A DNA stretch of 64,000 bases from Euglena gracilis (GCA_039621445.1 CP154954.1:11836716-11900715), one strand, 5' to 3'; shown: positions 15,901 to 50,453, counted from the stretch's first letter. Notes: generated by a model from the letters alone, not told the origin. Translations and numbers: made by a program.

Positions 15901-15965
<65 letters not shown>

Positions 15966-16667: not shown

Positions 16668-16736
16668 CCGGTGGGGTCCGGTGGGATCCGGTGGGACCCG
16701 GTGGGATCCGGTGGGATCCGGTGGGATTCCGGTGGG
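16668..16736. repeat. (CCGGTGGGAT)n decamer repeat; second array at ~17489-17546
   Basis: Directly visible. Confidence 0.9.
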
Positions 16737-27200: not shown

Positions 27201-30200
27201 TTGTTCAGCTTGAGCACACAAAAGAAATGAGGTACTTTCGCCATTTGCCCCCCATTGGCCAATTGGCCTCCGGGACAAGTCAGGCGAATTTCGGCAAGGC
27301 CGCAAAAAAGGCTCAAAAATTCCCAGAAACGTCCGAAAATCGAAAACCTTAAAATTGCTGGAAAGGAAAAGAAATGGCGAATCCAGCCATACACAAAAAA
27401 TCAACAAATTTGCACAGGAAAAAAATTAGGGGCAGGGGTCCTCAAGCCCCCCCCCCAATTGGTTAATGGGGGGGGTCTGAAGCAATGCCAAATAGGGGGG
27501 TGAGAGTAATTGCAAAATTGATTTTGGGAAAGCAGCAGCCAAAAAAAAATGTATCTCGAGGTCCTTGGTGTCATGGGGAAAACTGTCTCACAATCCAAAA
27601 TGATGTCATTCAATTTAATCTTTCTTGAACATTTCCTCTTAAGTGGCCATTTGTACTGTGTTCAAAGTTTCTTTCAGAGTCAAGCAGCAAAGGCTGATTT
27701 CAATGTGAAATTATGATAAAAGTACCAAATATCAAGTTTTTCATTGACGGATTGTTATGGTATTTCTGAGTTGCATTTTGTATCAAAAAATAAAATCGCT
27801 GGATAGATAATGAGTAAAGGCAGATTATAACTTCTGGGCGGGAAGAGTAAGCAAGCAGAACGCAGCCACCTGTGGCAGCGGCCATCATCAGCGCCTCCAT
27901 CTCCCGATGCTCTTGGGCCTCAAGGCTGGAGCGGCTGCCATACTGTTGCAATTTTGCAATGAGGCAGGTGAGGAGCACGCCCACGGCCAGCACCGCACCT
28001 GGGATCAACTGGGGAGGGGGGGAGGGGGGGGGAGGGGGTGTTGAGTGGCTTATCAATCGGACAAAGCTCTGGGCCGAAAAGTTGACTGAGTTACAGATTT
28101 TGTGCAGTTTTGAGGGAAAATTTCTTAGCAAAGAAAAGAGAAAGTAATACGCACACTGGAGGAGAATTTGAGAGGCTCCTGGCTCTCCCCTGGGCTACCC
28201 TTGGCACGTGGGGGGAGCTGGACCCCACAACCAATGGTCCAGGGTGGGGTGGGGGACCCCCCCCCCCCCAAACCTCAGTTCCTCCTGATATTGAACCCTG
28301 AGGGGCCCCAATTATGCACTTGTGTTGCTGCCCTCAGACCACCTCCTCTGTAAATGACCTGTGCGGGGGGGGGACAGTACAAATCGCCTGTTTTCTTTCG
28401 AAGTGTTGGTCCACGCGTTGGAAATTAAAATGTGAACAACATGAGTAAAACACTTCATTTTTCTGCCCTTTTTGTGATTATTTCGCAATACAATTTAAGG
28501 TGTGGAGAATGTCGGCGAGTTTTAGGCAGTAATTGTTGCAGACTTTGAAATTATCACTGTTCTTCATAAAATTCTCACTGGCAGAAAGATTTTTGATTTT
28601 TTGATTTCTTGATTTGAAAGATTTTTTGTCGGGCTTTTCAGGGAAAATGTAACGTGACCCCCCCCCTAAATGGCACCCCCCCCCGGAGCGTTTTGACCCC
28701 CCCTGGCGACTATTAGGGGGGGGGGGGGTGACAATTAGGGGGGGGGTTACTCAATTACCCCACATTTCCTTTGGGTCCATGGGTAACCCCCCCCCTAATT
28801 GTCGCCCCCCCAAGGGGGGGGCGACTATCAGGGGGGGGGGTGTCATATAGGGGGGGGGTCACGTTAAATGGAACAAAGTTTAGGGTGGGAAAAAAGGTTA
28901 ATGTAACCCATCATCACCAATGGCAAGCTGGATTTGGAGAGGGCTTAGGACAACAACGGTGGGGGGGGGGGGTTGGATACCACAAGTCATAAATGTTGTT
29001 GTTGTGTTGGAATTGATTGTCAACTGCTACCAAAAGCGTTTAAAAAACCTCCAAAAGTGTCCATTTCGAAAATTTTGAAACCGTGTCTGGGGGCTCTGGG
29101 TTCACGCCCGAACCAGCGTCTGGGATGCCAATTCGGGCGGGAAATTTCTGCGCCGAACCGGCATCCCAGATGCAGGTTCAGGCATGAAACCGGCGTCTGG
29201 ACCCAAAATAAAAAGTGCCAAAAAGTATCCAAAAGGGTTTGTAGACATGTGGCAATAACATCTGAGCAGTTTCTTTTTTGGGAGGTCTAATGCCAGAAAT
29301 TGGGGTTCTTTGCACAACAATTTTGGGGAATTTCTGAAATAGAATACCATGCAACGTGGCTGAATCTAAGGCCATCTGCCCTTGAGAAGAGCTTTCAATC
29401 GAAGGGCAACATGGCAGCTGAAATGGAATTTCGACTTTGCAAACAGGGTCAGAAAATGTGATCGCCAATTTTCAGAGCGCTGTGCATTGTAGTTGAGTTC
29501 TGTGGCTACCAAGCGAAAGGTCTTGGGGAGAGCTTTCCTTTGATGTGCAATATGCAACCTGAGATTTGGGATTTGACAAATTCAGATGTCAAATTTCGGA
29601 ACACACGATCGCTGAAAATACGAGCAATGTGCATTATGGCGAAATTCTGAGGCCATCTGCTGAAAGCCCTTGAGAAGAGCTTCGATTGTTGAGCAACATG
29701 GCCTCAGAAGTGTGGAATCTGCCAATTGCAACCGGCGGCCCATTTCGGCCAAAATCGCCCAAAACTGCCCCAAACATGGGTATTTGGGACGAAATTGGCC
29801 GTGATTCCTCAGCCACTGGTTCGGAGAAACGGTGTGTCCCATACACCGGTTCGGCCGTGAAGCCGGTGCCTGGGACGCCAGTTTGGGCTACCGCCCGAAC
29901 CGGCGTCCCAAGCACTGGCTCCTTGCCCAAACCGGCATCTGTGCAGTTCTCGATATAAATCCTTGCCCCCCCCCCCTGACCCAACAAACGTGGTCCCAGG
30001 CGAAGGGGTTGGGATGAACGAGGTTTGGGGGGGGCTCCAAAATCGGGCCTTCCGAAGGCCTTTCAAATTCACTGGCTCTTTGCACCGGAATCCGGGGCAG
30101 GCCACCCACAAAGGGGGGCTTTCTAATTAAAAAGAAGCAAGATGGATGTTGAAATAATGGCGACGTTCAGGGTGCCGGCTTTTTTCTTCACCCAAAGCAT

Positions 30201-32869
30201 CCTACCCACTTTTTGTGATAAATTTACACAAGAATGATCAGGATGTGGGCGCAAGGCGGTAGACTGGGGGGGGGGTAGTGGGTAGTCGGCCGACTAGTCG
30301 GCCGACTACCCAATTGGTCTGCCGACTAGGCCTAGTCGGTAGCTAGTCGGCGAGACAGGGGGGGGGGGGGTAGTGGGTAGTCGGCCAACTAGTCGGCCGA
30401 CTACCCACTCTAATGTACTAACGGGTCAAAACCGCCGACTTTTAAGCCCCCCCCATGAACACCAACGCAAACTAATCGGTGGCTAGTCGGCGGTCATAAA
30501 AATGGTCTGTGGTGGGCCCAAATCACCCGGAAATGGTCCGGATGGGTCCAAATAAGTGTCTTACGCCTAAATAAACATCCCCAGATGGAAATCTTTGGTC
30601 AGTGGGGGGTCGGTGGGGGGGTCCGGAGGGGTAAAAAACCAATGATGAAACAGGGATTACATTAAAATCCTTTAGAAATGCAATCTGCAGTCTGCATTCT
30701 GCATCACGAGAGGCAGAAAAACCCCCCCTCCACCCCAATCCGAGCCTCAAATAACAAAATCCCTTCTGTGTTGGCAACATACTCGGGGGCTAAGCCGTTT
30801 TTGTGGCTCACTTTGGCATAGGCGGGGGGACTCCGCCCCCCCCCCCGCACCCCCCCCTCAAATAACAAAATACCTTCTGTGTTGGCAACATACTCGGGGG
30901 CTAAGTCGTTCTTGTGGCTCACTTTGGCATTGGGGGGGGGGGGGGGGGGGCTCCGCGGCCCGCACCTCCCCCTCAAATAACAAAATCCCTTCTGTGTTGG
31001 CAACATACTCGGGGGCTAAGTCGTTCTTGTGGCTCACTTTGGCATAGGTGGGGGGGGGGGGGCCTCCGCCCCCCCCCCCGCACCCCCCCCTCAAATAACA
31101 AAATCCCTTCTATATTGGCAATAGACTTGGAGGGATAATACCTTTTTTTGTGCAAATTTTGACTTATAGTGAAAATTCAATGGGAGGTGTACTTTTGTCA
31201 AAAGTGGCCCAAAATGGACATTTTCCCCAATTTTTTTGCATATTCACCCCCGCTTGGGGGGTTCTGGAGCCATTTGGGTGGGTTTTGACTGGTGTTGAGG
31301 TGATTTAGACAAAAAAAAATTTCCCAGGGGGGGCTTAAAAGTCGGCGGTTTTGACCCGTTAGTACATTAGAGTGGGTAGTCGGCCGACCAGTCGGGGTAG
31401 TCGGCCGACTAGTCGGCCGACTACCCAATTGGTCCGCCGACTAGTCGGCCGACCAATTAGTCGGCCGAATACCCAATTGGTCGGCCGACTAGTCGGCCGA
31501 CTACCCACTACCCCCCCCAGTCTACCGTTTGGCACTCAGGATGTGGCAATACACATGGTAGACACACCATATCACCACTGAGGTGAACTTCGCTCTCCAC
31601 ATGCTCTTTCCTTTGCGAGTTCATCCCAAAAGGGTCGCCATGCAAAGCCCCCATTGTTGGAGGCGTTCGCTCGTCCCTTTGGCGCATATGGTAAAACACA
31701 AAAGCGCGTGGAGCTGCTACCATCGTGTGTGGTATTGCAGTAAATGGTTGGGGAGATGAAAATAATTTTATCGATGCAATTGGAGGAGAAAGAGTGGAAC
31801 CACGGTTGATTTCATACACCCACTGCATTCAAGCTTCTCTGAGATGGGGTTTGAGAGGGAGACCCACCTCGCACGGGACCCCCCCCACAAAATATTGGGC
31901 CACCTTTGGAGCAATTCCAAATAATTTTCCCACGCTTTCGCACCGACCCCTTCACTCATATCTGCCCTCTGCTTATAACCCCCCCCCTCGGGCCAACCAA
32001 CCATAACCCCCCCTGGGGGAAGAAAATTTTTGAAAGCCGCCAGGGACGGCTCCCGGTTCTGGCCTGGGGGGGGGGGGGTAGTGGGGGTCGACCATGGTCG
32101 CTCTCGGTCGCTATGGGTGATTCCTACCGGGATTTTTTTTCACCTTTTTTGCCATGTAGCGGTGTAGGCAACTGTTCCAGGGCCCTAAAATAACAAAATC
32201 CCTTGTGTGTGTAACGCCTTTTGCTTGTATGTTGCGGCAATTTGCCCGGTTAAACACTTTTTGACATTCACAGGCCCACGATTGAGAGCGACCGAGAGCG
32301 ACCATGGTCGCTCTCGGTCGACCCCCACTACCCCCCTCCCAGGATATAGCAACCCCCCGCCAGGGACGACTTTTTCAGCCGCAAACCACCCGAAAACTCA
32401 TTTTTGGCATTTTTTTTTTGCGGCCGACCATCACCATCATCATTTTTGGGACGCAAAAAAAAAATCTAAACTAACGGAAAATCTACTGCCGATTTCGGTG
32501 GATTTGGGGGTCATGTTGGGGGGTCAGGTTTTCACCGACAATTCCTTGACTTATTAACACCCCATTTATAAACCTTTGGCTAACCAAAACAGATCCCATA
32601 AACCCCGGGTTTACAAGTTGGGTGGGTACCAGTGTAATATGTGGCTATTTTTCGAAACTTGTCAAAAATAGATCCAGGAATTTCATTTGCTCACGGAAAA
32701 GTAACTCCAAACAAAAAAAGGGGGGGAGAGAGTCTCCTTGCATGACAGCAACAAAAGTCTGAATAAAAAATTACAAATTTTGAAATCAACCTTGTTTGAT
32801 ATAACATGTTCCAAAGAAGCAAAGAAGAAGGCTGCAAAGGATAGCCCGGTGCAGCCATCGGCCAGCCAT
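18252..32869 (-). CDS. CPBP/Abi family (type II CAAX protease-like) intramembrane metalloprotease, probably plastid-targeted (multi-exon)
   Basis: Catalytic motifs in order: [11 protein letters not shown] (~21215-21250), SSLLFGIVH (~19210-19240), [18 protein letters not shown] (exons 19096-19016 and 18420-18252, stop TGA). Upstream pieces: [16 protein letters not shown] (~21825-21875), [13 protein letters not shown] (~23265-23305), exon starting at 25445 and exon ~28000-27870 joined by a GT-AG intron (MAAAT|GSTSS). Tentative N-terminal exons at ~31795-31580 and 32869-~32813 ([19 protein letters not shown]). The 5' half of the model is approximate. Confidence 0.75.
20758..20848. repeat. 23-bp minisatellite (GTGTAATGTTACCCATCCTTGGT) x~4
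   Basis: Directly visible tandem copies without spacers. Confidence 0.9.
21357..21447. repeat. (CATC)n microsatellite
   Basis: Directly visible. Confidence 0.95.
26604..26721. repeat. (GAT)n-(GGT)n-(GAT)n microsatellite
   Basis: Directly visible. Confidence 0.95.
28650..28867. mobile_element. MITE, TA-flanked, TIR ACGTGACCCCCCCC
   Basis: TAACGTGACCCCCCCC at the left end and GGGGGGGGTCACGTTA at the right end; internal inverted symmetry. Confidence 0.7.
30249..31535. mobile_element. Non-autonomous TIR element with 11-bp target-site duplication (MULE-like)
   Basis: Direct repeat TCAGGATGTGG at 30238-30248 and 31536-31546. TIR ..CGGTAGACTGGGGGGGG(n)TAGTGGGTAGTCGGCCGAC. Internal ~115-bp tandem repeats at 30745-31110. 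A related inverted copy lies at ~39245-40050 and a terminus at ~47078-47140. Confidence 0.8.
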
Positions 32870-33449
32870 TGTTCGTGTCCACCAAAAGTCAACCACAAAG
32901 CAACGCAGACCAACCATAAGGAAGCTGTGGAGAAACCAATCAACGTTAAAAGCCCCAACTTCCGCCTGGACCGAGTTATGCAGCAGCAAGGAGTCCAACT
33001 GGGTAGGATTACCAACTGGGTAGGAAAGCGTGGTACCAGTGGGGCGACGGCAGTACAGTTGGGGGTTTTGGGGGACCCCCCCCCCTGTACTGTGTCAAGA
33101 ACTGTGTTTTGGGCCAAGGTTTTAGGGGAGCCCAGGGGCGGGGACCGCGGCGCCGAAGCTGGGCCCCCCTAAAACCTTGGCCCAAAACACTGTTCTTGTT
33201 TGAAGCCGTGTTTTGGGCAAAGATTTAAGACTTTTAAAGTCTCGAAATCGGCCCAAACACGGTTTCAGTTGGGATTTTCGCCCCCCCCCCCAGTGCCGAC
33301 CCCCCCGAGACAGATGAAATTTTGACACCAAAAATGGCCTTTTTAGACCAAAAAAAAGGCCTTTAAAAAAATTTCCGGCGCCTTCGGTGCCGGTTTTTTT
33401 GGCCGATTTTGAGGGGGGGGTTGGCAGTACAGTTGGCCCCCCCCCGGTG

Positions 33450-34277
33450 TTGAGACAGAAAGGCCACTGGCACAGTTTTTTTCTCAATCACATCCTGGGC
33501 TGTGGGTCTTCCTCTCCCCTCCTTCATTTGCTCTAACGTTGCCCCCACGGCGTACCCACTGGCATCAACCCTTAGCACAAAGAGTTTATCTGGGTCTACT
33601 CGTTGCAACATTAGGCCCGAACACAACCTTTTTTTCAGCTCCTCAAAAGCTTTTCAATCCGCCCCATCAAATTCCACAGGTTTTCGACTTCCTTTCTTTC
33701 CCAGCTCCCTGGGGACTTTCAATTTGTCTTGCAATCGGCAGCTACTTCCACATACATGTGAATGTATGCATTGTAATAATTTGTGAATCACAAAAAGGCC
33801 CTCAAAGCCGTAATTTTTTTGGAACTTCCCACTTTTCGATCGCTCGTAACTTACCCGGTGCTGGCCTCCTAGTCCCATTTCCTAAAATCTATCCACAAAT
33901 TCACCCTCCTCCACAAAAAGTTTGGCTTTGAATTCACCAGCCTCCAAATGTTCTGTTTTGAGCACTTCCAACACCCTCCTGAAATCTTTTTCATGTGTAC
34001 CAGTATGTCGTCTATGCACCCTGTGGCTATATCACTTACTGGTGTCAAACAGTCATCGATCATTTGCTGAAATTGTTTGGGGGCATTCGTCAAACCCATT
34101 ACATTTACCCTCCACTGAAAAATGCCTTTGGAGGAACAACACGTTATGGGTCGGCTTTCTGGGTGTAAGGGTTGTTGGTGAAAAGCTTGCTTCAAATCGA
34201 TAATCGAAAACATTTGGTTCGCTCCATGTTTGACCAAAATGTCTTCAATTTTTGGTAGGGGGTAGCTGCATCGCCTT
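33450..34277 (-). pseudogene. Reverse transcriptase core and RNase H of the Ty3/gypsy-like element
   Basis: YPLPKIEDIL, FSIIDLKQAFHQ, MGLTNAPKQFQQMID, IDDIL, DASGYAVGATLEQ, PVAFLS. Confidence 0.9.
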
Positions 34278-34522
34278 GAGATATTGGAGGTCCCCCCCGG
34301 ATATTTTCAGGTCATCGCTGCGGGGTTGCCATGTACAGAATATGGCGTGGCAAAAACGGTGGGAGTCAGAAATTTGGAGGGGGCAGATTGGCTGGTCAAA
34401 AAAACTTTGGAAATTGTCGAATATTTCAAACCAAAGTTGTGGTGGATTGAGAATCCCTTTCATGGGCTTTTGCGGAAAAGACCCGGTGTTCAAAATCTGA
34501 CTTTTGTCCATGTTGATTATTG
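34278..34522 (+). pseudogene. C5-cytosine DNA methyltransferase, catalytic part (motifs IV and VI)
   Basis: PPGYFQVIAAGLPCTEYGVAKTVGVRNLEGADWLVKKTLEIVEYFKPKLWWIENPFHGLL...VDY: catalytic PC at 34329-34334, ENP at 34449-34457. Confidence 0.85.
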
Positions 34523-34986
34523 GAATTTTTCAATTTTTCAGCCACCTCAGGCCACAAAGTCCAGGGGGGGTTCATCAACAACGTTTCGTCCGCCCCCCAT
34601 TCCTTTTTCATGCCATCATCATCCGCACCACAAAACTTTTCACACCTGGCATTTTGGCTGGTTGCAAAACAATCCCTTTCTGCGTAACCTGAAATTCCTT
34701 CTCAATTTCATCCATTCAAACTTGCCTAAGAGCATAACCCTCCCTACAATATCCGCTTTTTTGTTCCAACACGGTTAACAAATTATCCACCAGTTGCTTG
34801 GGCATCCTCCATTTTTTCTGGGTGCCAACTGATATTCCCTACCCTCCCAGCTTTTCTCGGTGACTCCTCCCCTCAGTAATAAAATTTGGGCAGGTCTGGA
34901 CATCGCAGAGTTTGTTCTGCAGCTTGCTCAGATTTTCACTCCCCCAGATCGGGGTTGGTTTTTGGTATCCCCAATCTGAAAATTGA
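34523..34986 (-). pseudogene. Inverted block: C5-MTase C-terminus followed by the N-terminal part of a Dam-like amino-MTase
   Basis: QFSDWGYQKPTPIWGS...KWRMPKQLVDNLL, then ERDCFATSQNARCEKFCGADDDGMKKEWGADETLLMNPPWTLWPEVAEKLKN (NPPW at 34561-34572). It continues on + at 34987 (CRAICICPDWSRR) and 35725 (WVKNLLATAVKKIYFPKG...TRWGVWALLID). Confidence 0.82.
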
Positions 34987-35027
34987 CTTGTCGGGCAATT
35001 TGTATTTGCCCAGACTGGAGTAGGAGG

Positions 35028-35724
35028 GGGCATAGTGGGCACGCCTGTTTTTTTTGACGTTGTTTTTTTTGTTTTTTTTATTTCTAACAATGTTTTTTTA
35101 AAAAAAAACAAAAAAAACGCCCACTAGGTTTTGCAAAGAAAAAAATTTGAATGCGTATTTTCGGTCATTTTTTGGCAACTTTTGGGTCAGTTTTGCCAAA
35201 AACTACCTCCCATAAAAAATGGAAAAAGTAATAAAATTGCATTTTTCTGCTTTTTTGGATGTTTTCGACCATTTTTGGCACTTTTTGAACTGAGTAGGAC
35301 TCAAAGTATGGTTTGGGTGTTTCATAACGAGTTTTCTCAATGAAATTTCCCTTTTGTTTTTTTGATGTTTTTTTTAGTGTTTTTTTTTAAAAAAACACAT
35401 TGTTTTTTTTTTAAAAAAACAAAAAAAATGCCCACTACCACCCCCCCCCCCTTTATTGTCCCACCGACCTGCCCCCGGGAGGCCCGACCGGACAATAAAG
35501 GGGGGGGGACAATAAAGGGGTACCAAAGGAATTTCATTAGCCGGGCCAAAAAAACCCCCCGTCGGCCGGGGCCCAGGGACAATAAAGGGGGGGGGACAAT
35601 AAAGGGGGGGGGGGGGTATTGTACCCCCCCCCCTGGGAGCCATTTTCTGGGGGGGGAGGTACATTATGGGGGGGGGTACAATATGGGGGGCGGCCAAGGT
35701 CATGGGCGGCCAGGGAATGGGAGG
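35028..35724. mobile_element. 697-bp composite insertion interrupting the Dam-like domain; contains a nested TA-MITE at 35438-35616
   Basis: GGAGG is duplicated (35023-35027 and 35720-35724). Removing the insertion restores PDWSRR|WVKNLL in frame. Confidence 0.75.
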
Positions 35725-35989
35725 TGGGTTAAAAATCTGTTGGCTACGGCTGTCAAAAAGATTTATTTTCCCAAGGGGAGAAAGTTGTTTGAGGATGATG
35801 GGAGTATTTTGAGGGGTACCCGTTGGGGGGTGTGGGCCTTGTTGATCGATAGAAGGCAACCCTCCCAGGGGGGGGGGGGCAGCCCCAGGGAAGAGAAAAT
35901 TGGTGTGGCTGAAAAAAAGCACGTTGAGGGGGACAAAAACTCGGGGAGGAGCGAAGAAACTTGGGGAGGACAGACAACTGCGGTTAAAA

Positions 35990-37145
35990 ACACAGATACG
36001 GTTGGCAAATGGGGAGGAGAAAACAGCCCGAATTTTGATTGACACGGGGACAAACCTCATTCGACAAGGGTTGATAGGGGACCACCTAGTGTATCCTGCT
36101 GAGGACCCGTTAAGGTTTGAAACTGCCAATGGGCAAACTTTGACGGGGGGAGCAGATGTGCTAAGGTGAAAGTGATCCTTCAACAAAGCTGGAATGAGGA
36201 AAGGGACCCTGAGTGTGTGGAATGTGAGGTTGAATTTCATGAGGCAAACATCAAAGTTGAGGCAATTCTTTCTAATCCTTGGTTGGCGGAGGCAAAACTG
36301 GGAATTTTTCCACACCACAAGGTGTTGGTGAAAGACAGCCCCGACCTGGTTTTTTTGCGGGGTGTTGAAAGATGGAGGGGTCCACAAAAATTCAGGATGA
36401 CACAAATTTTTCAGTGGACAGTGTGACTGCGGCGGAGGGGTCTTCGTGTGGGTTGCAAAAACGTGGTCTTTGTTTGCCTTTGGAAGGGTTGGACCAGGAA
36501 TTGCACTTTTTGAGTGACGAGGACTTGGGGGAGGTTGCCACAAATTTGGAGGGAAGTGACCCCCCAGTGCAAGTTATCAACCAAATGATAATTGCAAGGG
36601 AGGGGGAGGACCAAAAAGAGGATGAACGGGTAGCCAAGTTGAGGGATGAAGTATTGCAGGATTACAAGGGGACGGTATTTCGGTCATCGTCATTTCTAGA
36701 CCCCCCGAAAGAGGGCAATATGGTCATGCATACATACCACCCCCCCCCCTTTATTGTCCCCCCCCCTTTATTGTCCCTGGGCCCCGGCCGACGGGGGGTT
36801 TTTTTGGCCCGGCCAATGAAATTCCTTTGGTACCCCTTTATTGTCCCCCCCCCTTTATTGTCCGGTCGGGCCTCCCGGGGGCAGGTCGGTGGGACAATAA
36901 AGGGGGGGGGGGTGGTACCGTTGAAGGAGGGGGCAAAGCCAACCAGACCGAAGCCTTTTTTCATGCACGGTGAGAGGAAAGAGGCACTTGAAAAAATCAC
37001 ACAAGACTGGGGCGACAAAAAATACACTGAGCCAGCCACAGCCAAAAAATCTGAATGGCTGTCCCAAACTTTTCCAGTACCAAAAAAATCCAACAATTTT
37101 CCTTGGAGGGGGGTGGCGGACCTCAGGGGCACAAACAGCCAAACA
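35990..37145 (+). pseudogene. Aspartic protease and RT N-terminus of the Ty3/gypsy-like element (within the inverted block)
   Basis: ARILIDTGTNLIRQGL, EAILSNPWL, GHAY(I)PLKEGAKPTRPKPF, WRGVADLRGTN. Confidence 0.85.
36737..36915. mobile_element. TA-targeting MITE (Tc1/mariner-type), TIR CCACCCCCCCCCTTTATTGTCCC
   Basis: TA on both sides (36735-36736 and 36916-36917) and near-perfect TIRs. Removal restores GHAYIPLKEG in pol. Confidence 0.9.
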
Positions 37146-37290
37146 AAATATTCCAAAATATTTGCACAGTGGGTTGGGTTAAATCTGGGGTGTAGGTCCA
37201 CTGACACAACCTTAACCCCCTGCTCTCTCATGCAATCCGCAACCGAGCCTTTACCGCAAAAAAGTTATAAAGCTCTTTTCTTTACGGAAG
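37146..37290 (-). pseudogene. C5-cytosine DNA methyltransferase N-terminus (motif I, FxGxG)
   Basis: KRAL*LFCGKGSVADCMREQGVKVVSVDLHPRFNPTHCANILE; the stop is TAA where GAA (LELFCGKG) is expected. Confidence 0.85.
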
Positions 37291-38288
37291 GCTGTGCAAG
37301 ATCTCTTACGAGATCTTATTCTTTGATTTGCACGTCACGCACGCACGCACCCAACACATTGGGCACACCTTGCGCAGAGGTCTCCTGTGATGGCAGATTT
37401 TTCATCGTGTTTTCACTCGCCCGAGATTCTTCATGCCACCTGGGATTTGGGTTTCTCTTTGTGTGGGACTGGGTATGCAAGCCCGGGGCGGCTCCCGCCC
37501 CCAACGTTCCACCCCGGATATCCTAGCATCGGTTTCCTTTCCCCCTTCCTTTTCCATTGCCTTTTCCACCATCATGGCCCTTTCCCCTGGACCAGTCATT
37601 TCCATTGTTTATTTTCCCCCAAGAATTGTTTCCTTTGCCCTTTCCTTTGCCTTTGCCTTTGCCACCACAAGACTGTGAGTCAAAATTCTTTTGATTTGAG
37701 TGCCACTGCTAATTTCCCTGAAAATTGGCATTGGCATTGGAATTCCACCCAGAATCGTTTCTCCATCCACCCCCATTGCCAAATTGAGATTGCTGTGATC
37801 GAACCACTGGCACTGAGAGGTTCGTGTTTGCATTGGTCGCAGGAGCAGCCATCTGTGAATCTGATTTTCCAACGGACCGTTTTGTCACTGTTTCGCCCCC
37901 CTTTGCTGACCGTGCTGGGGAGGGTTTCCTGGCCCCTTTGGCCCGATCTGCCTTTGCAGACCTGTCCCTCCGGTTTCCGGACCCATTTGGCTCTCTGGAA
38001 CTGTGTAACACGTCTTGATTATAGTGTCGTCCAACCTTTCCTCGCTTTCGCCCTTTGGTGCGCAAAAGGTAAAAGTTGGAGTAACAGAAGAAAAAAATAT
38101 AATATAAAAGTTGAAAGCCCTTTTCCCCAATTAAGGGGCAGAGCACAACGCAGGGTAGAAGCCCTATGGGCTACGACAATGCAAAGTGCCAAGTGATTTT
38201 TGGCTGTCCTTTCAGGACTTCAAATGAAAAAAATCAAACTTGAAACTCAAGTAAGACAAAGTGAAAGAACAAAATAGAATATACCACC

Positions 38289-38544
38289 TGTGGAGAGGAG
38301 AACCCGAATAAGGTCAAGGTATTCCTAATTCGGGCCGTTGGCCATCTGTAGGAATACCACCTAGCATAGTACTGTGTATGGGGCTCAGAGCTATATCTGG
38401 CCGTAGGCTTATACCTACATACACAGTACCATGGCCTTACAGCTGCCTGGTACACATCCCCCTCCCAGGGCTATGCCCGATTTCCCTACTGGACCAGGCC
38501 AGTCGGAATGCCGGACACAGTGCTGGGGACGGGGACCTGTCACA
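38289..38544 (-). repeat. Candidate 5' LTR of the Ty3/gypsy-like element
   Basis: On - it starts TGTGACA and ends CCACA, followed after 2 nt by TGGTAT (PBS-like). There is no second LTR in the window to confirm it. Confidence 0.3.
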
Positions 38545-38989
38545 GAGCCGTATGTGGCTTTTGGTTCTCCTGTCAACAGGGGTGTGGGAAAGGAGGTGCG
38601 AAATAACGCAATAACGCGCAAAAGTGGTTAACCGCTTTTGTGGTGCCTACTTTTTGTGGCAAAGGGGTGGAAGTGGAAGAGCCCATTGGAAAATTGGGCT
38701 GGAAGGTTTCAATTCCAGAAAGTACCATCCACCCAGTTTGGGGTGTGTCTATGACACGCGGGGAGGTCTCACTCCATAATCGGAAAAGATTGAAGGGTAG
38801 GGTGTGGAAGGAGGGGGCACCTGGCCAGTCATATCTAACCAGGGAGAAAGACCTATTTACAAAACCAACTGCCGGCGCCAGCGATGTTTTGCCCAGGGGG
38901 TAAAGGAGAGAGGAGTGGGGGGCTGTTCAAAAGTCGTTCGTCAGAAGTTTTGCTGTCTGGCAGTCTTATGTGGCCTTATAGCCGAAAAG

Positions 38990-39212
38990 ACCGCCAACTC
39001 AGGGGCATGGCTAAATTGTCGCCTTTCTCAAGCTCTTGGAACCCATATGGAACATGTTGACCATCACCTAGCACTCCATTGGTGGCTTGGGCTCCCACTG
39101 CTCAACCCCAACGAGGTGGACAACACTTGTGCCCAATGTACAGCCTGCTTGGATGCATGGGGAGACCATGCAATTACCTGCAAGACCAATGGTCTAACTC
39201 AACGTCACACTC
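38990..39212 (+). pseudogene. CRE-clade non-LTR retrotransposon fragment (zinc knuckle)
   Basis: ALHWWLGLPL...CAQCTACLDAWGDHAITCKTNGLTQRH, homologous to the CPKC...GHHLVCC...RRH region of ORF 44224-45645. Confidence 0.75.
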
Positions 39213-39631
39213 CAAGACTGGTTACTTGCCACAACACGATCCGGCAGTCGGCCGACCAGTCGGCCGACTACCCACTCTAATGTACTAACAGGTCAAAACC
39301 GCCGACTTTTAAGCCCCCCCTGGGAATTTTTTTTTGTCTAAATCACCTCAACACCAGTCAAAACCCACCCAAATGGCTCCAGAACCCCCCAATCGGGGGT
39401 GAATATGCAAAAAAAAATTGGGGAAAATGTCCATTTTGGGCCACTTTTGACAAAAGTACACCTCTCCCCATTGAATTTTCAATATAAGTGAAAATTTGAT
39501 ATAAAAAAAAGGTCTTATCAAGCCAAGTATATTGCCAACATAGAAGGGATTTTGTTATTTGAGGGGGGGTGCGGGGGGGGCCTACCCCGCCTATGCCAAA
39601 ATGAGCCACAAAAACGACTTACCCCCGAGTA

Positions 39632-39811
39632 CCACCCGCCCCCCCCCCCCATATTGTCCCAACCACCTTCCCACTGGGACCCCAAATGGACAATATGGGG
39701 GGGGGAGACAATATGGGGGTACCAAAGGAAATTTCATCGGCCGAGCCAAAAAAGCCCCCCGTCGGCCAGGCCGAGGGACAATATGGGGGGGGGGACAATA
39801 TGGGGGGGGGG
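39632..39811. mobile_element. TA-targeting MITE related to 36737-36915
   Basis: TIR CCACCC..ATATTGTCCC / GGGACAATATGGGG. It sits in the TA of GAGTATGTTGCC, whose uninterrupted form occurs in the repeats at 30770-31015 (reverse strand). Confidence 0.85.
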
Positions 39812-42800
39812 TATGTTGCCAACACAGAAGGGATTTTGTTATTTGAGGCTTGGATGGGGGTGGAGGGGGGAGTTTTCTGCCTCTCGTGATGCAGAATGCT
39901 TGCATTCCTAAAGGATTTTCATGTAATCCCTGTTTCATCAGTGGTTTTTTCCCCCTCCGGACCCCCATCAAGGAGGGCCCACCGACCCCCCCACTGACCA
40001 AAGATTTCCATTTGGGGGTGTTTATTTAGGCGTAAGACACTTATTTGGGCTCCGTGCGGAATCCTGGCCATGCTACTTCTGGAGGTCGGGCCGACCTAGG
40101 TCGGGCCGACCATTGGCCATGGCTTATCGACCTCTGGAGGTCGGGCCGACCAGGTCAGCCCGACCTCCAATAATCCGCAATACCCCCCCCCTTTTGGAAA
40201 TTTAAGCCCCCCCCCCCAAATTTGATTCTCTTATTTCAATTCGAAATGAACGTAAACCCATCGCAATGTCCTAAAAAAACGTCCCAAATTCAAAAAAATT
40301 GTGAAAAATGGCTAAATCAGGTGAGCCAATGACAAAAATTCCTTTGGTGTGCAATGCCCAAACCCTAACCCTACCCCTACCCTGACCCTGACCCTGACCC
40401 AAACCCTGACCCTAACCCAGCTCTTTCATCCCACATTGAAAAAAAAATTGAAAAACGCGAACTTAGTTGGCCTACGGCCTCCTCTGGGGGGGGGGGCTGA
40501 CGCCCCCCGGACCCCCCGCCTAAAATAGCAAACTCCCCTTCTGTGTGCAAGGCAAGGATGGCCAAAACAAGTATCTTCTTTGAGGCCAGAAGATTTTTTG
40601 ATGTTTATAGCCGGCTGTTCAGAAACGTGATAAATTGGCCCCTACCAGCTACACCAAAGAGCCGCCCAACTAGGGTTAATACACATGGGGGGACCCTTGC
40701 TCGGCGCCTTTGGCACCTCGCTCGGGTCCCCCCATGTTTTTAACCCTAGTTGGGCGGCTCTTTGGGGGTGAGGCGGGTTGCGGGGGGGGGGGGGGGTGCG
40801 GGGGGGTTGCGGGGGGGGGGGGGGGGGTTGCGGGGGAAAAACCGATTTTTCCAGGTCAAAATTAGGAATCACCAAGTCGCAAAATTTGATGATGCCACCA
40901 AAAATTAGGCATTCCCACACATCAAATTAGGATTTCGGTTCCAAATTGGGCATCGCCAACCCAAAATTTTGACCCATTTGCCCCGATTGGAGCCAAAAAT
41001 GTGCACGACAACTATATTTTAACCAAAATTAGACATCTCCCACCCGAAAGAAATTTTCCCAGAACTGGGCATCCGGTCGGGTTGCGGGGGGGTTGCGGGG
41101 GGGGGGTTGCGGGGGGGGTTGCGGGGGGAACACCCCCTTTGGGTTCGCAGGGTACCTTGTAGAGACCAATCTAACAACGTTGAGCGGGAAATGTTCTGCT
41201 GTTTGGATAAGAATCGTAACCCTAACCCTACTCCTTCAAATACCGTCAGAAATTCTTTTTTACCACAGGTTGATGCCATCAGGAATTCTTTTTGTGCTAA
41301 AATTGCGCTATTTATGCTCCACAGGGTTTGGCCAAGGTTTTGGATGCTTTTGAAATTGGCTCAGCCTCTTCCTCAAACCAGCTGATATGCAATGTGGGCA
41401 TGTCGTTTCGTAGCCTATGGCATGCTGTACATAACCACAATAGTGGATCATTTTCCTGGAAATCCAGGACGAAATTTCCTCCAAAAATATTGGGCAAATA
41501 CCCTTGGAGATTTCGCGTTCCAAAAACGCCAAGTGTGGCTGGTGGTGAATATACCGAGTTGATCCCGGTGGAACAAGGGCTTGATCCACTTGTTCAGCCA
41601 GGGGTCACTGCTGTTACGGATCATATTGATACTAGCCTGGCGAGTTTGCAGGGGGTCTACTCTGGACAGTACGTCCTCAGTCCAAAATGGCTCGTTGGCC
41701 TCATGAGGGACATTTGATCTTATCGATCTGATTGTGGGTTTGCGCTTAGCGCCTTCAGAGGTTGCAGCCACATAGCTGGCCATTGGTATCGTGGGCCTAT
41801 GGCCTGCGCCAGAGCCATCTCCACCAGGGGGTGGTGGCTCATCATCCCGCCGCCTTTCAGCGGGCTTGCAGCCTTTGGCTGAGGGTTTAGCCTTAGGCTT
41901 TTAATTCTTTCCATATCGGCGTTCTTGCCTAGGGTCTGCTGGAGGCAGTGGTCTTTCCACCGTTGGCGGTGCCGGAGCTGCCGATTTGGCAGGAGGTGGT
42001 TTCCGCCGTTGGCGGTGCTGGTGCTCTGCACACGCAACCCGGACAGCATAAGCTTCCACCATAACGCATATGTGCGCAATTGCACAGCATTGGTTTGTGG
42101 CGATTGCCTACTGGCATGGTCCAATATGGACAATTTCCGCTGGACGGAAAATGGTTATGACAAGGACATACCTGTCCGTTGCATCAACTGCCTACAGGCA
42201 AACTTCTGGTTACCTGCCACTGGCGGTATGACTAGATTCATACCAGAAAATGAAGACCATCTGGTCAATTTCAAGCAGGATTATAAGTCCCAAATCAATT
42301 TCTACTAGTTCAAGAAATTCAAAGCTGTACACAGCTACCGCACAGGCGGAATCGCCGAAGATTTTCATCTTGACAGCGCAGTTGTCCGACTCGCAGTCGA
42401 GTCAGCAGGCAAGGCCAAAGTGCCATATATTTTTCAAGACTCCGATTGGGATAGGGTGATATACCCACTTTTTCAGGCACAAACTTTGCCAAACCGATCA
42501 GGTTATACATTTCTGTTGCCTGAATACCCCCCTGAGGCCTACAAAATGAAATTTACCGATTGGGTAAGAGAAATTTTAAGGCCATTCACAATACGAGCGC
42601 GAGTCGTAGGCTGGCGTTGCAAGGCAGATCCTGCCGTTTACCCGGGGATACCCCCACACGTTCAATGCAACCACCCCCGCCTGAATTTTTGGATCTGGCC
42701 GGCAATGTTGCCACTTTGCTTCTGGGATAACCTCCAAAATTTTCTGCATCGAGAAGCCAACAGGCTCGGAGTACGATTACCTGATGGGTACACGCAAACC

Positions 42801-43989
42801 TGGGAATCACCCGACTACGATGGATGATCCTGAAAGGCAACTTGTAAATTTCGAACCCCCGATCCTGGAGATAGTGGAAACTCCTGAAGCAGATTACGTG
42901 CGGGAGATCAGACCCCCGACTCCCAGGAAATGGCCATTTGTGCCATAGATATCCCAGGCCTACAGGCCACAGGTCCATGGTTCCTGTTCTGACCTCTCCA
43001 TCAGGCCTATAGGCCCTGTATTAGGTATCCACCCCAGGCACATCTGCCAATATGTATTTATACTTTACATATATCCCCTCTCCTTTCGGCTATTGCCCGT
43101 CCATCGAGGTATAAGCCTCTGGGGATACCCCATCGACAGGCGGTGGAAAACATTATTGCACGCTCCCTTTTTGCCAACCAAATTGGCTTGGCTCGGAATC
43201 AAATCTCCATTGGACTACCAAGAGGTAGCGAGTTATGTGCGCTATGAAACCGCGCCATTCCTTATGACAATCTGGAAATTCTGCCGCTTGACTTCAAGGT
43301 TCGCCTTGCAAGTCTCCGATACCGACTTGGGCAAGAAGTCCAACCACTGAAGGACTGGTACGAAACGCCCTCCTCCATCCAGCGAGCGAGTCTGCAAGAA
43401 ACTCGACAAAAAATTTGGCAAGACCGCATGAACGCCCAGAGACAGAGATAAAAGGAATGGAAGCAAACTGGCAGCCACCGAGATCTGTGTCGCAAAAGCT
43501 TACATGGAAAGATTCCAACTTAGGTGGGTTTGGCTTTTTCCGCCAGGTTTTGGGCGTCATTCTGACTCCAGCCCAGCAGCTGGCTGAACCCCCCCCCCCC
43601 CGAGTAACAAGTTGGGAGCTATTATTACGGTGTGCGCGCTGTACGCTGTGCGTCCTCTGTCTGGCGGCATATATGCTGAGGGAAAGCTTCACAGCACGGC
43701 GCGGACACGATGTCTCCTTGTGAAAGTGATATTTTTTTTCCGACTTGCCGGTGCCGGTGCGGAGGAGTGCTTCACGGTGGGCAGCACAGCTTCACCCAAA
43801 CCGTGCCCCGGGCCCAGGGAAACGTCTCTTTTGGCCCTCGCCACAAGAGGAACCCCCTTGTGACTCCCTGTGCCGCCACAGGTCGCGGGTAGATTATACT
43901 GTGGGTGTAATGTACAAAGGAGCTGAGTGAACCTGTTGTGGAGGTCAGTGGTTAGCGGAAGATGAGCAAAGGTCACCTTCAATATATAT

Positions 43990-45873: not shown

Positions 45874-48800
45874 ATGATGGTTCACGCTCTCCACCACCAC
45901 CACCATGCCGCCACCGGCCGTCGTGAGTACCACCCTGATGTGGTTTTGTACCTTCTCACCATCCTTCTCCTCTGTCTTGCCCTCCTCCTGGGGTTCATTT
46001 CACTGTTTGTTCCGTGGGTTCAAAAGGATATCGCTATCGGCACCCGTGTCTTTTCGTACCCATTCACGACGTGCTATATGCAAACCTTCAGCCCTGTGCA
46101 TCAGCAGACTTGCATGGACAACGACTTCATTATCGGCCCCAAGGGTGCCCCATTAACCGGAGGAAACAATACGTGCAAGGAATTCCTCCTTGTTGCGATC
46201 GGCCTTGGGTTCGTTGCCTTCCTTGTTGCATTTCTGACAAGGGTTTCGGAAGCCCCGCTCCCAGTTTCAGGTCGGCTTTGGAGGTTGTGCAGACCAGGTC
46301 GCACCCCCCACGAACAAACAAATGGTGTTTGTTTGACCTCATGAACGAATAATATCCATTAAGCTCCCCCACTTGAACTACAATTTAAACTCTTCGTTGT
46401 TTTCTTGCCTCATGGGCTTCCGAGAACAACCCCACTGATCCAAATGCCTCCCCCCCCCCCATAATTGAGAATGAAAAAGGGTACTTGTCTGTCGATCCAC
46501 GGCAAAACAGGTCAATTCACACCTGTTTTTGGCCACTTTGGGTCACTGATGGACAGGGAAAGCACAAAACAGGGTCAGAAGATGCGGCTGGTGTCGGCAC
46601 AGGGTCTGGGGAGTTTGTGGAGCATAGCACATAGCACACATAGCTACCCACAGGCATGGGTTGCAGGGGAACGCCCTATTCCGAACCCTATCCCTGACCC
46701 TAAACCTATCCCTAACCCAAATCCCTTACCGTATCCGTGACCCTAACCCTAACCCGACCTCTCCCCAACCGTATCCCTAACCCTAACCCTAATCCAATCC
46801 CAAACCCTATCCCTGACCCTAACCCTATTCCTAACCGTATCCTTAACCCTTCGGGCGGCAGCCCAAACCGGCGTTCTGAGCCACGGATTCACGCCCAAAC
46901 CAGGGGTTTTCTTAAGCCGGAGGGGACCCCACCCCGGGGGGGGGGGGCGGTCCAGCCATCCAGGAGCCCAAATTCGGGCTGAGAGCCCCCCCCCCCCCCG
47001 GGGGAGTGAAATGAAGTTGGGCCCAGCCCGGCCAGAGGCTGGGCAGCCGGCCGAAGGTTGGGTATGTGGGCCAGCCGGCGCAAGGCAGTAGACTGGGGGG
47101 GGGGGTAGTGGGTAGTCGGCCGACTACCCAATTGGTCCGACTACCGAATTCGTCGGGGGGGGGGACAATATGGGGGGGGGTGGTATTGCCCATTTTTTGA
47201 TGTGTTGGTGTTTCCCCCCCAAAAAATGTTCAAAAATTTTTTAAAAAATGCGCATTTTTGGATTGATTTTTTTTTAAAAAGCAGGGATTTTTGACCGATT
47301 TCGACCCGATTTCTGGCCCTTTGCCCATACATGAAATCGAAAAATCCCCCCCCCCAGTTTCATGGTTAGGAGGAGGGGTCCGACCCCCCTGTGTCGGGAG
47401 GGGGGGTTCGACCCCCCCCCTCAAGGCTTCCCATCCATCCCTGAGGCACTCCAAGGCACAAAAATCCGACCCCCCTGTGGGGGCCACACAGACCCGGTGC
47501 TGAAGGCGCCGGGGAGCCAAAAAATGGCCTACTTTCAAAGGAATGTGCCTGGGCACAGGGCGAAATCCGACCCCCCTGGGGGGCAGTGCCTGCCTCGGCA
47601 CTCCGGACCCCCCCCCCGGGGTTGGTAAAAAAAACGGCCCCATAACCTGCCCCTGGTCCCAGGTTGCAGGTTATGGGGGGTGTTACGACCCCCCCCCCCC
47701 CCGGTCGCAGGTTGCAGGAACCCGGTCGTACGACAAGGGGGGGGGGCAGGTAAGACACATCCGACCAGTTTTTGCCATTTTTTTGGCCCATTTTTGAACC
47801 CCCAAAAGCCAAAAACCCGTCTAACCACCCTTTGGAATGGAGTGGGGGAGGGAGGTCCGGGGCTGGAATAAGGCTCCTGGCTGAAACGGCTGCTGGCTGG
47901 CTGGACCCCCATGTCCTGGGACCTGGACCTGGGGGGATGGGTCCTTTTCGGCTTTAGCGACGCCCTGGCCTGGTCGGCCTGCCAGTCAGCCTGAGGTCAT
48001 GCCGACCTGTTGGGAGTTTGGAACAACAGGTCCAGCGGGAGCAGCCCCCCCCCCCAAATACATCAGCAGGGTGAGACCCCCAACGGATCGAGCCAGAGCG
48101 AAGGGCTGGTGGTGTGGGGGTTAATGCAGTGGACTGGGCATCTTGCTTGCTTGCTTGCTTGCTTGCTTGACCACCAGAGGTCAGCCCAGCAAAACCGTCA
48201 CGGCCAAAAATCCGCCTAAGGTGCTCTGAAACACCCCAGCCTGTCCTCCATTTCCTTGTCTTCTTGTCGGGCATTGAAATGGGGCCGAAACTCTTCCGCT
48301 GGTCTTATTTCTACTTGTGTTTGTGATCCTCAGGGTGTGGTCACGCCCTTTGATCCTGGCCATTATTTGCCAGGTCCAGGCATTTTCTGAAGTCACGATG
48401 TCCACGGATCCAAGGTTGACGTTTTTTTTTAGGGCAAAAAAAAGATATGTGTGTTTTCAAAAAAATATTTTTTTAAAAATAAACAACAAAAAAACGTCAT
48501 CAAGGGTCCCAGGAATTTTTTTTGAAAAGGACTTCTTTTGGACAATAATGCCAGATATTTCCTGTTTCTGGGTGCCGAAATCCTCTAGATCCTGGTTGCA
48601 TTTGGGAAAATGCCAACTTTAGTTCAAAATTTTTATATTATTTTTCAAAAATCTTAACTTGAGCATTTGCCCCAACAGTGCCCTCAACAGGATTTACAAA
48701 AAACCGACAGTTTCTATGTCAAGAACTGTATTTGGGCCAAGAGTTAGGGGGAGCCCAGGAGCGACTGCGGCGCCTTCCGCGCCGCGGTCGCTCCTGGGCT

Positions 48801-50453
48801 CAGTCACCTATAGCTAAAATGGCCTAAAGTGGCCTAAAATGACTTTTTGACCCCCTATAAGTGGGGGTCCCCAAAATGGCTGAAAATGGCCTAAAATAGC
48901 CTAAAATGGCCTAAAATGGCCAAAATGGGAAAATTCTGTTGCACAATAATTTTTTTGTGAACAATTGAAGCCATTCAGGCTATGACTTTCGGTGTCTTTT
49001 GTTAATGTGGACGGCGAACAGTGGATTTGGTGGAGGTACAGCCCCACAAGGCCCATGCTTTAATCCCAACTAATAATAGCATCAGTCCCCAAATAACACA
49101 GTCTCCAACCTTTTTTGGTAGCTGAATTTTGAAGGTTTGGACTGAAGTATTTTTTCTTATTCCCAAATTTTTTTTGGTGGGGAACAATGCTTATTGTCCC
49201 TGGGCCCCGGCCGACGGGGGATTTTTTGGCCTGGCCAATGAAAATTCCTTTGGTACACCCTTATTGTCCCCCCCCTTGTTGTCCGGTCGGGCCTCCCGGG
49301 GAGAGGTCGGTGGGACAATACCATGCCCCCCCCCCCATATAAGACCCCCCCTCGGGAGCCAAAATCCTAGGGGGGGGGTCTTATATGGGGGGGGTCTTAT
49401 ATGGGGGGGTCGGTCCCGGCCAAAGGGCCGGCCTTCGGCCGGCCAGGGGGGGGTCTTATATGGGGGGGGTCTTATATGGGGGGGGTATGGGGAGCCTTGC
49501 AAGCGACGAGGTTGGACATTTATCTCGCTGGTGATGGACTGCTACTGTGGCATGAGTGAAGCAGGCCAAGGATTCGTCTCCACATGCATCCGCCTCCAAA
49601 CAAGCCAACACAACGGCTGGGAGAGGCGGGGTGTGGAGGCTAGTGCATGGCAGGGGCTTGGAATGGCTTTCCTGAGCAACTGCTTGATTGCAGTAGCACT
49701 GGTACGCATTCCCCGTATTTCTGAGTGTGACTTCATCCAAATGCACCTTCCACCTCTATCACCTCCACGACCTTCGGTGGCCCACACAAAACAATGGCCG
49801 CGGGGCCATCTTTCTTACATGCCACACTCGGACGGCTCTGAAACCAAAAACACCAAGAGAAATCAGCAAACGACACAAACACGCCCAGTGGCAAGCAAAG
49901 CACACACCCCCCCGCGCCCCGCCGCCTATAGGTAGAGAGAGACAGAGAGACAGAGAGAGAGACAGATAGACGAAGAGTAGAGAGAGAGAGAGAGAGAGAG
50001 AGAATAAGAGAGAGAGAGAAAAGAGAGAGAGAGAGAGAGGAGAGAGGAGAGGAGAAAGAGAGAGACAGAGAGAGAGAGACAGAGAGAGGAGAGAGACAGA
50101 GAGACACAGATAGAGAGAGACAGAGATATAATATACAGAGAAAATAGAAAATAGAGAGAGATAGAAGAGAATAAGAGAAAGATATATAGATAAGAGATGA
50201 GAGAGAATAGTATCAGGGAGAGGGAGATAGATATAAGAAACAAGAAGAGGAAAGCGGGAGAGGGAGTAGAGGGAGAGGGAGAGGAGAGGAGACAAGAAGA
50301 AATATACAGAGAGGATAGAGAGAGGGATAGAGAACAGAGGACAGAGAGAATATATATACATAGAGATACGATATAACAGAGTAACAGGAGAGATACATAT
50401 ATATACAGATAGAGAGAGGCAGAGAATACAGCTAGAGAGATAAAGAGAGGGAT

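Follow-up and report, generated by a model that had tools for sequence, protein, structure and literature searches.

Organization of the decayed pol gene

The stretch of Euglena gracilis DNA considered here (GCA_039621445.1, CP154954.1:11836716-11900715; 64,000 nt, hereafter the window) harbors the remains of a Ty3/gypsy-type retrotransposon with coding regions for two DNA methyltransferases (MTases), a C5-cytosine MTase (DNMT) and a Dam-like MTase. Positions 33450-37426 constitute a single decayed pol gene, broken up into separate blocks by two insertions and by two inversions, one nested in the other. Stop-to-stop open reading frames (ORFs) and direct reading contained all motifs quoted in the original prediction, on the strands given there: LFCGKG...VVSVD at 37148-37264 (-), PCTEY and IENP at 34278-34522 (+), VDY/CQFSDWGYQKPT across the 34522/34986 join, DCFATSQNARCEKF...NPPW at 34523-34683 (-), ICPDW at 34989-35027 (+), the stretch starting with WV from 35725, and the reverse transcriptase (RT) and RNase H at 33450-34276 (-). 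Joining the seven blocks by script gave long readable polyprotein stretches.

The order of the blocks was examined by tblastn against the window with P0023, an intact relative of 1911 amino acids (aa). Its residues 114, 206, 291, 392, 449, 681, 878 and 1167 fall successively on window blocks in the order and orientation that had been predicted. Thus, residues 114-206 match 37148-37426 (-), 210-291 match 34287-34532 (+), 289-392 match 34692-34985 (-), 396-449 match 34522-34683 (-), 464-878 match 35725-37148 (+) and 872-1167 match 33450-34294 (-). In addition, hidden Markov models (HMMs) for the DNMT and Dam families, built from relatives and run on the window pieces, matched them at colinear model positions. 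Given these two lines of colinearity, the architecture is real, far beyond chance. The prediction that a single polyprotein path emerges once the blocks are re-inverted and the two insertions removed is therefore borne out, and so is the placement of the C5-MTase and the Dam-like MTase in tandem, N-terminal to protease-RT-RNase H, by colinear alignment with intact relatives. The breakpoints needed a slight correction: the left one was a single base off, the outer inverted segment being 34277-37145, and the second insertion covers 36737-36915. As had also been proposed, the copy is dead, since it contains in-frame stops and frameshifts and ends within RNase H. The euglenid host is likewise supported, the best match being a protein of Euglena gracilis (EukProt P000113), referred to below as P0010.

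The DNMT domain is compact (~200 aa) and is distributed over three blocks. The end of the N-terminal region together with motifs I-II (LFCGKG, VVSVD) occupies 37146-37426 (-) (tblastn, P0023 residues 114-206; DNMT HMM positions 26-64, E 3.5e-8). Motifs IV-VI (PCTEY, WWIENP) lie at 34277-34522 (+) (P0023 residues 210-291; HMM 68-152, E 7.8e-41); the outer inverted segment starts with this block, which is in frame with the block starting at 37146. The C-terminal part was located at 34692-34986 (-) by tblastn (P0023 residues 289-392), by the HMM (146-197, E 1.4e-15) and by alignment to P0005, another relative; it reads QFSDWGYQKPT, a Cys/His cluster, REKLGG, an in-frame stop and then a degenerate motif-X-like stretch. 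A further in-frame stop is found directly before motif I. The signatures LFCGKG (motif I), LPCTEY (motif IV) and WWIENP (motif VI) are all present, and their columns are invariant in 12 relatives. Across these 12 sequences (36-58% identity to the first of them), 32 DNMT columns are invariant, including the motif I glycine, PC, ENP and KPTR-W. The window DNMT keeps 28 of the 32; three are changed (S256G, D311H and R327P) and one falls at a junction. The assignment of the window sequence to the C5-MTases is made because its relatives pass the Pfam profile DNA_methylase (PF00145) with 34.8 (P0001), 43.2 (P0008), 26.7 (P0014) and 28.2 (P0023) bits, and because the family HMM matches three window pieces. 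The profile of the relatives also matches DNMT1 structures (E 8.4e-4). An 81-aa DNMT block used as a query recovered nine proteins among 42 candidates.

The N-terminal half of the Dam-like MTase (DCFATSQNARCEKF...NPPW) is found at 34523-34691 (-), in a frame shifted from that of the DNMT (Dam HMM positions 34-89, E 3.6e-23). The Pfam profile Dam (PF05869) scored 29.6 bits on 34426-34701 (-), above its cut-off of 28.1 (E 6.6e-7). The segment CRAICICPDWSRR at 34989-35027 (+) is 92% identical to residues 67-79 of P0010 by tblastn (HMM 88-101, E 2.6e-5), and the C-terminal part (WVKNLL...WGVWALLIDRRQ) at 35725-35860 (+) corresponds to HMM positions 101-170 (E 6.6e-20). The window Dam pieces are 88% identical to P0010 and keep the NPPW motif; NPPW or NPPF is conserved in the Dam across relatives. 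Frameshifts occur near the N-terminal half of the Dam and ahead of the protease. The Dam profile had no match among PDB sequences at E <= 1. When the Dam region of P0010 was used as a homologue query, P0010 itself and P0024 were the only proteins recovered. A 91-aa window Dam piece gave 67 matches, mostly short fragments, in a representative library. Three of them are repeat proteins (PKD, TPR) with no Dam domain in Pfam and were taken as false positives. Six of the 67 also carry the present kind of DNMT, three in the order DNMT > Dam and three in the order Dam > DNMT.

The aspartic protease is located at 35966-36330 (+), with DTG at 36041-36049 (tblastn, P0005 residues 610-733). It is followed by a protease-RT linker at 36375-36736 (+) (tblastn, P0023 residues 679-878 and P0010 residues 270-495). 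The N-terminal part of the RT (PLKEGAKP...FPWRGVADLRGTNSQT) was found by tblastn at 36918-37145 (+), the last block of the outer inverted segment. The RT core (YPLPKIEDIL...CIDDILVH) at 33710-34276 (-) was recognized by tblastn, with 91% identity to P0010, and by Pfam RVT_1 (E 7.9e-12), and the N-terminal part of RNase H at 33450-33709 (-) by Pfam RT_RNaseH_2 (E 1.9e-11). The homology ends at 33450, beside a short G/C-rich repeat. The Ty3/gypsy-type affiliation claimed originally is upheld by these two Pfam matches and by the comparison of P0023 with solved structures, where the best relatives were the Ty3 Gag-Pol polyprotein (7q5b, E 5.3e-64) and the Ty3 RT (E 8.5e-47).

The gag-like region that had been proposed for 37427-38550 found no support in the comparison. 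This stretch has no homology to the relatives by tblastn, nor did Pfam give a match in the part tested (37709-38170); no homology was found in the window upstream of the position of P0023 residue 114. In the eight relative pol ORFs checked, 1-190 low-complexity residues are followed directly by the DNMT, and none of the eight has a CCHC knuckle. A Pfam gag domain was likewise absent from the four relatives scanned (E <= 0.01). Pfam yielded nothing relevant in ten other long ORFs of the window, and Rfam gave 0 families on the window.

Inversions and insertions

The outer inverted segment (34277-37145) is 2869 nt long. The reading frame is kept through both of its joins, which neither lose nor gain a base. 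Position 37145 joined to the reverse complement from 34276 reads ADLRGTNSQTRRCSYPLPKI, compared with VDLRGPNSQTRRCNYPLPKI in P0010, and the reverse complement down to 37146 joined to 34277 onward gives ...HCANILEYFEILEVPPGYFQVIAAGLPCTEY in a single frame. Judging from these joins, the outer inversion can be read as nucleotide-precise. For the outer inversion, this base-precise reading replaced one of junctions with microhomologies of 3-4 nt. The inner inverted segment comprises 464 nt (34523-34986). When its reverse complement from 34986 is placed after 34522, VHVDY/CQFSDWGYQKPT is restored in frame, and the other inner join shows a small indel relative to NSN-CRAICICPDW of P0010.

Insertion 1 (35028-35724, 697 nt) is composite and splits the Dam alignment between P0010 residue 79 and residues 77-309. 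It contains one copy (35436-35619) of a 184-nt repeat resembling miniature inverted-repeat transposable elements (MITEs). Insertion 1 is flanked by the direct repeat GGAGG (35023-35027 and 35720-35724), possibly a 5-bp target-site duplication, and its ends are unlike those of long terminal repeats (LTRs). Insertion 2 (36737-36915, 179 nt) is itself MITE-like; it has terminal inverted repeats, and TA is duplicated at its flanks (36735-36736 and 36916-36917). Its repeat (184 nt) is 99% complementary to 35436-35619, and the two copies lie in opposite orientation 1.1 kb apart. The terminal inverted repeats of this MITE-like element (~180 nt) consist of a C-run and TTTATTGTCC. Further copies were detected in the window by blastn at 39636-39811 and 49191-49320, as well as a partial one at 47156-47186.

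Contigs of three DNA runs with the same organism label were aligned to the stretch, and those described here are a few of ~54,000. The element family is highly repeated: 13134 to 20365 contigs aligned per DNA run, and 30 of the 30 bins were covered. The empty-site joint of insertion 2 (36735>36917) is present in run X1. One contig each of runs X1 and X3 shows the RT join without inversion, from 34270 to 37148 on opposite strands. At the inner junction, a 128-nt contig of X3 agrees with the window over 34421-34548 except for one mismatch; it extends 26 nt past the junction, which is below the 31-nt rule applied in the alignment. The outer junctions in the window arrangement were bridged by none of the contigs listed.

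These data bear on the possibility that both inversions arose in assembly or consensus building, in which case the copy in the genome would be colinear, if decayed and truncated all the same. The outer breakpoints (34276/34277 and 37145/37146) have neither inverted repeats nor a duplication, which for a base-precise inversion is unusual in natural rearrangement. The missing bridge over the outer junctions and the very high copy number of the family, which makes it prone to misjoins, point in the same direction. However, the small indel at the inner junction is such as a repaired real break might leave, and the X3 contig, whose sample and study codes differ from those of the best-matching run, does cross this junction, if by less than the rule demands. 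Furthermore, so few of the contigs were listed that a missing bridge proves nothing. We regard an artefactual origin of the inversions as unlikely, while giving it serious consideration.

Intact relatives and the proposed element

A 135-aa RT block used as a query recovered 81 proteins among 113 candidates. The closest one, P0010 (EukProt EP00667_Euglena_gracilis_P000113), is an E. gracilis transcript product with 91% identity in the RT, and it carries Dam, protease, RT, RNase H, integrase and chromodomain. In P0014 (1763 aa) and P0023 (1911 aa), Pfam annotation gave the order DNA_methylase > Dam > RVT_1 > RNase H > Integrase_H2C2 > rve > Chromo within a single ORF. Integrase_H2C2 and rve follow RNase H in all three of these proteins, and each of them has a Chromo match (E 4.8e-13 in P0010). 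A chromodomain after the integrase is the defining feature of chromoviruses, and the family is consequently chromovirus-like. An uninterrupted 757-aa ORF, P0005, contains DNMT > Dam > DTGA protease.

According to our own HMMs, DNMT is followed by Dam in seven of the 81 RT relatives (P0014, P0021, P0023, P0024, P0026, P0055 and P0065). These seven are uninterrupted and show DNMT > Dam > protease > RT, continuing, where complete, through RNase H, integrase and chromodomain. Four others (P0010, P0012, P0027 and P0072) start inside the Dam, 13 have a DNMT without Dam, and 57 have neither domain; nearly all of the latter are shorter than a full pol and may miss the N-terminus. Among four intact polyproteins, pairwise identity is 60-76% in the DNMT, 51-74% in the Dam and 53-70% in the protease region, compared with 11-29% in the N-terminus (pairs with at least 64 aligned positions). 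This difference fits constraint on both MTases in the intact relatives.

It could be argued that a DIRS Dam, a host or viral DNMT and gypsy pieces merely came to be adjacent through nested insertion or misassembly and never formed one polyprotein. The heavy rearrangement of the locus, with its two inversions and two insertions, would suit such a chimera, and nested insertions and assembly artefacts in E. gracilis are warned of in the text of a recent preprint (Fernandez-Moreno et al., bioRxiv 10.64898/2026.05.21.726589, 22 May 2026). However, the seven uninterrupted ORFs come from other assemblies and hold DNMT > Dam > protease > RT in one frame, with P0005 adding DNMT > Dam > protease; moreover, the block joins restore conserved motifs in frame, and the DNMT and RT trees described below group the same lineages. 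As the seven intact relatives rule out chance juxtaposition, we consider a chimera highly improbable.

In the preprint, the name "EpiLTRs" is given to LTR elements of E. gracilis that combine a chromodomain with DAM and DNMT. We suggest that the locus is very probably a dead, 3′-truncated and internally rearranged copy of a high-copy E. gracilis chromovirus-like Ty3/gypsy LTR retrotransposon of this EpiLTR kind. In the intact relatives, a single pol ORF begins with a short low-complexity N-terminus, followed by the compact C5 DNMT, a DIRS-type Dam, the aspartic protease, RT, RNase H, integrase and chromodomain. Because both MTases lie upstream of the protease in one ORF, they would be translated with every pol molecule. 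Protease cleavage probably releases them or leaves them with the particle. The cDNA of the element or its newly made insertion could then receive 5-methylcytosine (5mC) and N6-methyladenine (6mA) from them, and the chromodomain would steer integration. This possible self-marking resembles the model proposed for DAM in the text of the preprint. An element with writers of both 5mC and 6mA and a chromatin reader would represent a compact natural experiment on how parasites handle host epigenomes, as the preprint has already pointed out for E. gracilis.

A number of observations weigh against this interpretation. Beyond residue 784 of its 1540, P0010 has no tblastn match anywhere in the 64-kb window, and tblastn with the relatives gave no match there for the end of RNase H, an integrase or a chromodomain; we attribute the lack of integrase and chromodomain to the copy stopping at 33450. 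No LTR-like direct repeat flanks the element within 30000-43000, and neither a primer-binding site nor gag was found in the window. Hence, the status of an LTR element is shown via the relatives only. The Pfam profiles by which the predicted domains were to be verified were passed by the window pieces for Dam, RVT_1 and RT_RNaseH_2, but DNA_methylase (PF00145) stayed at 11.8 bits, below the cut-off of 22, and the protease piece had no match; the Asp-protease matches of the relatives are themselves weak and below the Pfam cut-offs. No database protein is more than 59% identical to the window DNMT, P0010 being 5′-truncated. RNA reads on the copy are nearly lacking: in ~5% of run X21, 26 reads fell on it, and 23 of them were only partial matches, which gives no firm indication of its expression. 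According to the text of the preprint, DAMs expressed in E. coli produced no 6mA (bioRxiv 10.64898/2026.05.21.726589). Finally, that the domain order is the same as in the Euglena EpiLTRs is something we infer from the wording of the preprint.

Comparison with known elements and a possible DNMT-first lineage

The original prediction treated the architecture as unrecognised, provided that no dual-MTase elements had been described. This novelty does not hold, since the dual-methyltransferase architecture is already known from the same species as the EpiLTR of the preprint text (bioRxiv 10.64898/2026.05.21.726589). The same text describes DAM-LTR retrotransposons with a higher share of 6mA-methylated copies, places the EpiLTR DNMT as sister to DNMT4, and reports near-default CG methylation in E. 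gracilis together with 6mA at a subset of promoters. The term "EpiLTR" was found in no other paper in a full-text literature search. Other papers joining Euglena, retrotransposon and DNMT, including Sarre et al. 2025, are unrelated to the dual-MTase architecture by their titles and abstracts. The locus therefore adds one decayed example to the described architecture rather than a discovery.

In the window we found the Dam, the C5-DNMT and, by the best protein match, the E. gracilis host. As in the EpiLTRs of the preprint text, the element is Ty3/gypsy-like and LTR-type with DAM, DNMT and, here in relatives, a chromodomain, and its Dam is of the eukaryotic transposable element/DIRS type. There is no demonstrable difference; the preprint text gives no domain order, and here the relatives have DNMT > Dam > protease > RT > RNase H > integrase > chromodomain. 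The window copy differs in being a truncated, inverted relic. The EpiLTR of Cymbomonas tetramitiformis is also chromovirus-like with DAM and DNMT, and its DNMT is reported as monophyletic with the Euglena one; however, this DNMT is described in the preprint text as located at the 3′ end of pol, whereas here both MTases lie 5′, before the protease (bioRxiv 10.64898/2026.05.21.726589). The three fragments with the reversed order Dam > DNMT (P0119, P0136 and P0156) may represent the Cymbomonas type of EpiLTR.

With DIRS1-type elements, the relic shares the Dam-like domain (PF05869) and the conserved NPP[WF] pocket. The DIRS1 type is described in the original prediction and the preprint text as having a tyrosine recombinase, no protease and the Dam after RNase H (bioRxiv 10.64898/2026.05.21.726589); the Euglena element, in contrast, has a protease, a Dam upstream of it and, in its relatives, a DDE integrase and a chromodomain. 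A variant of a DIRS-like tyrosine-recombinase retroelement, with the Dam as its hallmark, might be suspected given that Dam domains of the PF05869 type are reported from DIRS elements and that Euglena Dam clades mix DIRS and LTR elements in the preprint text (bioRxiv 10.64898/2026.05.21.726589), but the Ty3-type RT, the DTG protease, the position of the Dam before the protease and not after RNase H, and the Integrase_H2C2, rve and Chromo domains of relatives including P0010 make this alternative highly improbable; the ten other long ORFs of the window had no recombinase-like Pfam match, although no search aimed at recombinases was made.

Captured C5-DNMTs with catalytic residues under purifying selection are also described for KnitGypsy-Dnmt3, SymbioDIRS-Dnmt3 and SymbioLINE-Dnmt (de Mendoza et al. 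2018, PMC5890265). The text of that paper covers Symbiodinium and Klebsormidium and never mentions "Euglena". In contrast to the present element, the DNMTs there are DNMT3-type or dinoflagellate-specific, and no Dam accompanies them (PMC5890265). The DNMT of the Euglena element is compact, at ~200 aa, and has its full-length relatives on contigs of virus-like character and in Bacillus phages. The compact C5-MTases encoded by DNA viruses (IMG/VR contigs and the Bacillus phage "C-5 cytosine-specific DNA methylase I") match it over the whole domain with 28-50% identity and share the C-terminal (Y/F)xK(P/D)T-W motif and the Cys cluster. These, however, are standalone genes on dense, mostly low-GC contigs with D5-like/AEP primase-helicase neighbors, and they have no fusion to pol.

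A search for DNMT relatives gave 261 stretches in metagenomes; among the 80 kept, only L002-L004 have further retroelement parts. The IMG/VR search gave 162 contigs, and the 80 kept include seven with names of giant-virus metagenome-assembled genomes (MAGs), namely L092, L120, L142, L143, L147, L158 and L160, each with a compact DNMT. In phages, 31 records were found, mostly Bacillus phages annotated as C-5 cytosine methylase. Three long low-GC contigs have D5-like or AEP_C962R primase-helicases adjoining a standalone DNMT. Standalone compact DNMT genes are seen on the metagenome contigs L008, L023 and L066, with an N6 DNA methylase adjoining the DNMT in L008, and contig L005 encodes a KilA-N protein beside its standalone DNMT.

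Several retroelements have the DNMT with no Dam. An intact metagenome ORF (L003:3-3593 (+)) and P0030, P0045 and P0064 show DNMT > protease > RT, the N-terminal DNMT of such relatives standing directly before protease-RT-RNase H (or protease-RT-RNase H-integrase-chromodomain). A quick RT-RNase H tree, with the distant P0090 as its root, was built from the 40 proteins (rows) that have 330 or more aligned residues. The Dam-bearing rows fall into two clades, both starred, and the DNMT-only rows are basal. The first clade comprises 11 rows, including P0010, with a Shimodaira-Hasegawa-like approximate likelihood ratio test (SH-aLRT) support of 100. The second, which contains P0055 and P0065 (97), has its place within a group of DNMT-only rows (98). 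Forcing ten Dam rows together against ten DNMT-only rows cost 43 log-likelihood units (p-AU 0.033, approximately unbiased test), in a post hoc comparison in which the group was named after the tree had been seen and one long branch is involved. A single RT clade of all Dam-bearing lineages is thus disfavored on these alignments.

A Bacillus phage sequence served as the root of two quick DNMT trees. For the first, 162 full-length domains were thinned to 81 rows, comprising all retroelement rows, every third metagenome row, every third IMG/VR row and the giant-virus MAG rows with a full-length domain. In the second (75 rows), L149, L152, L112, L081, L103 and L029 were removed. The trees consist of retroelement, virus-like and phage sequences only, with no references for eukaryotic DNMT1, 3, 4, 5 and 6. 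All 31 retroelement DNMTs of the thinned sample form one clade, with SH-aLRT 99 in the first tree and 98 in the second; L001 and seven short proteins (P0001-P0007) were labelled as retroelement-derived by similarity alone. The sister of this clade is L005 (support 82), and the backbone was not resolved. The same lineages come together in the DNMT and the RT trees, for instance, P0030/P0036/P0045, and P0055/P0065 with P0064/P0043.

Tentatively, the Euglena dual-MTase elements may represent Dam-bearing tips of a broader chromovirus-like lineage whose pol starts with a compact C5-DNMT of DNA-virus type. The DNMT might have been captured once and inherited with the RT, and the DIRS-type Dam might have entered the position between DNMT and protease on two or more occasions, or have been lost more than once. 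No description of a DNMT-first chromovirus-like lineage was found in the literature searched, and the figures or supplements of the preprint may already show it. Three points may exceed the text of the preprint, namely the DNMT-only RT relatives, the single retroelement DNMT clade and the distribution of the Dam over more than one RT clade. Together with the occurrence of both domain orders, they could refine the published picture of how this toolkit was assembled.

The CpG observed/expected ratio is 0.58 for the whole 64 kb, 0.50 for the coding blocks of the element and 0.59 for the rest of the window. This level agrees with reports of heavy CG methylation in E. gracilis and is not element-specific. 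CpG depletion as a mark of self-methylation was considered and set aside, because the difference between 0.50 and 0.59 is too small to interpret.

The relic is flanked by two inverted copies (87-89% identity) of an ~850-nt repeat, at 30548-31395 and 39252-40048, ~7.9 kb apart. The left copy contains tandem 115-nt units and the right one a MITE insertion, and no link of this repeat to the retroelement was found. Farther along the window, GC skew is strongly negative (-0.52) at 54001-56000, and tandem units of ~115-140 nt, which are related to 40457-40568, form a run at 53894-54579.

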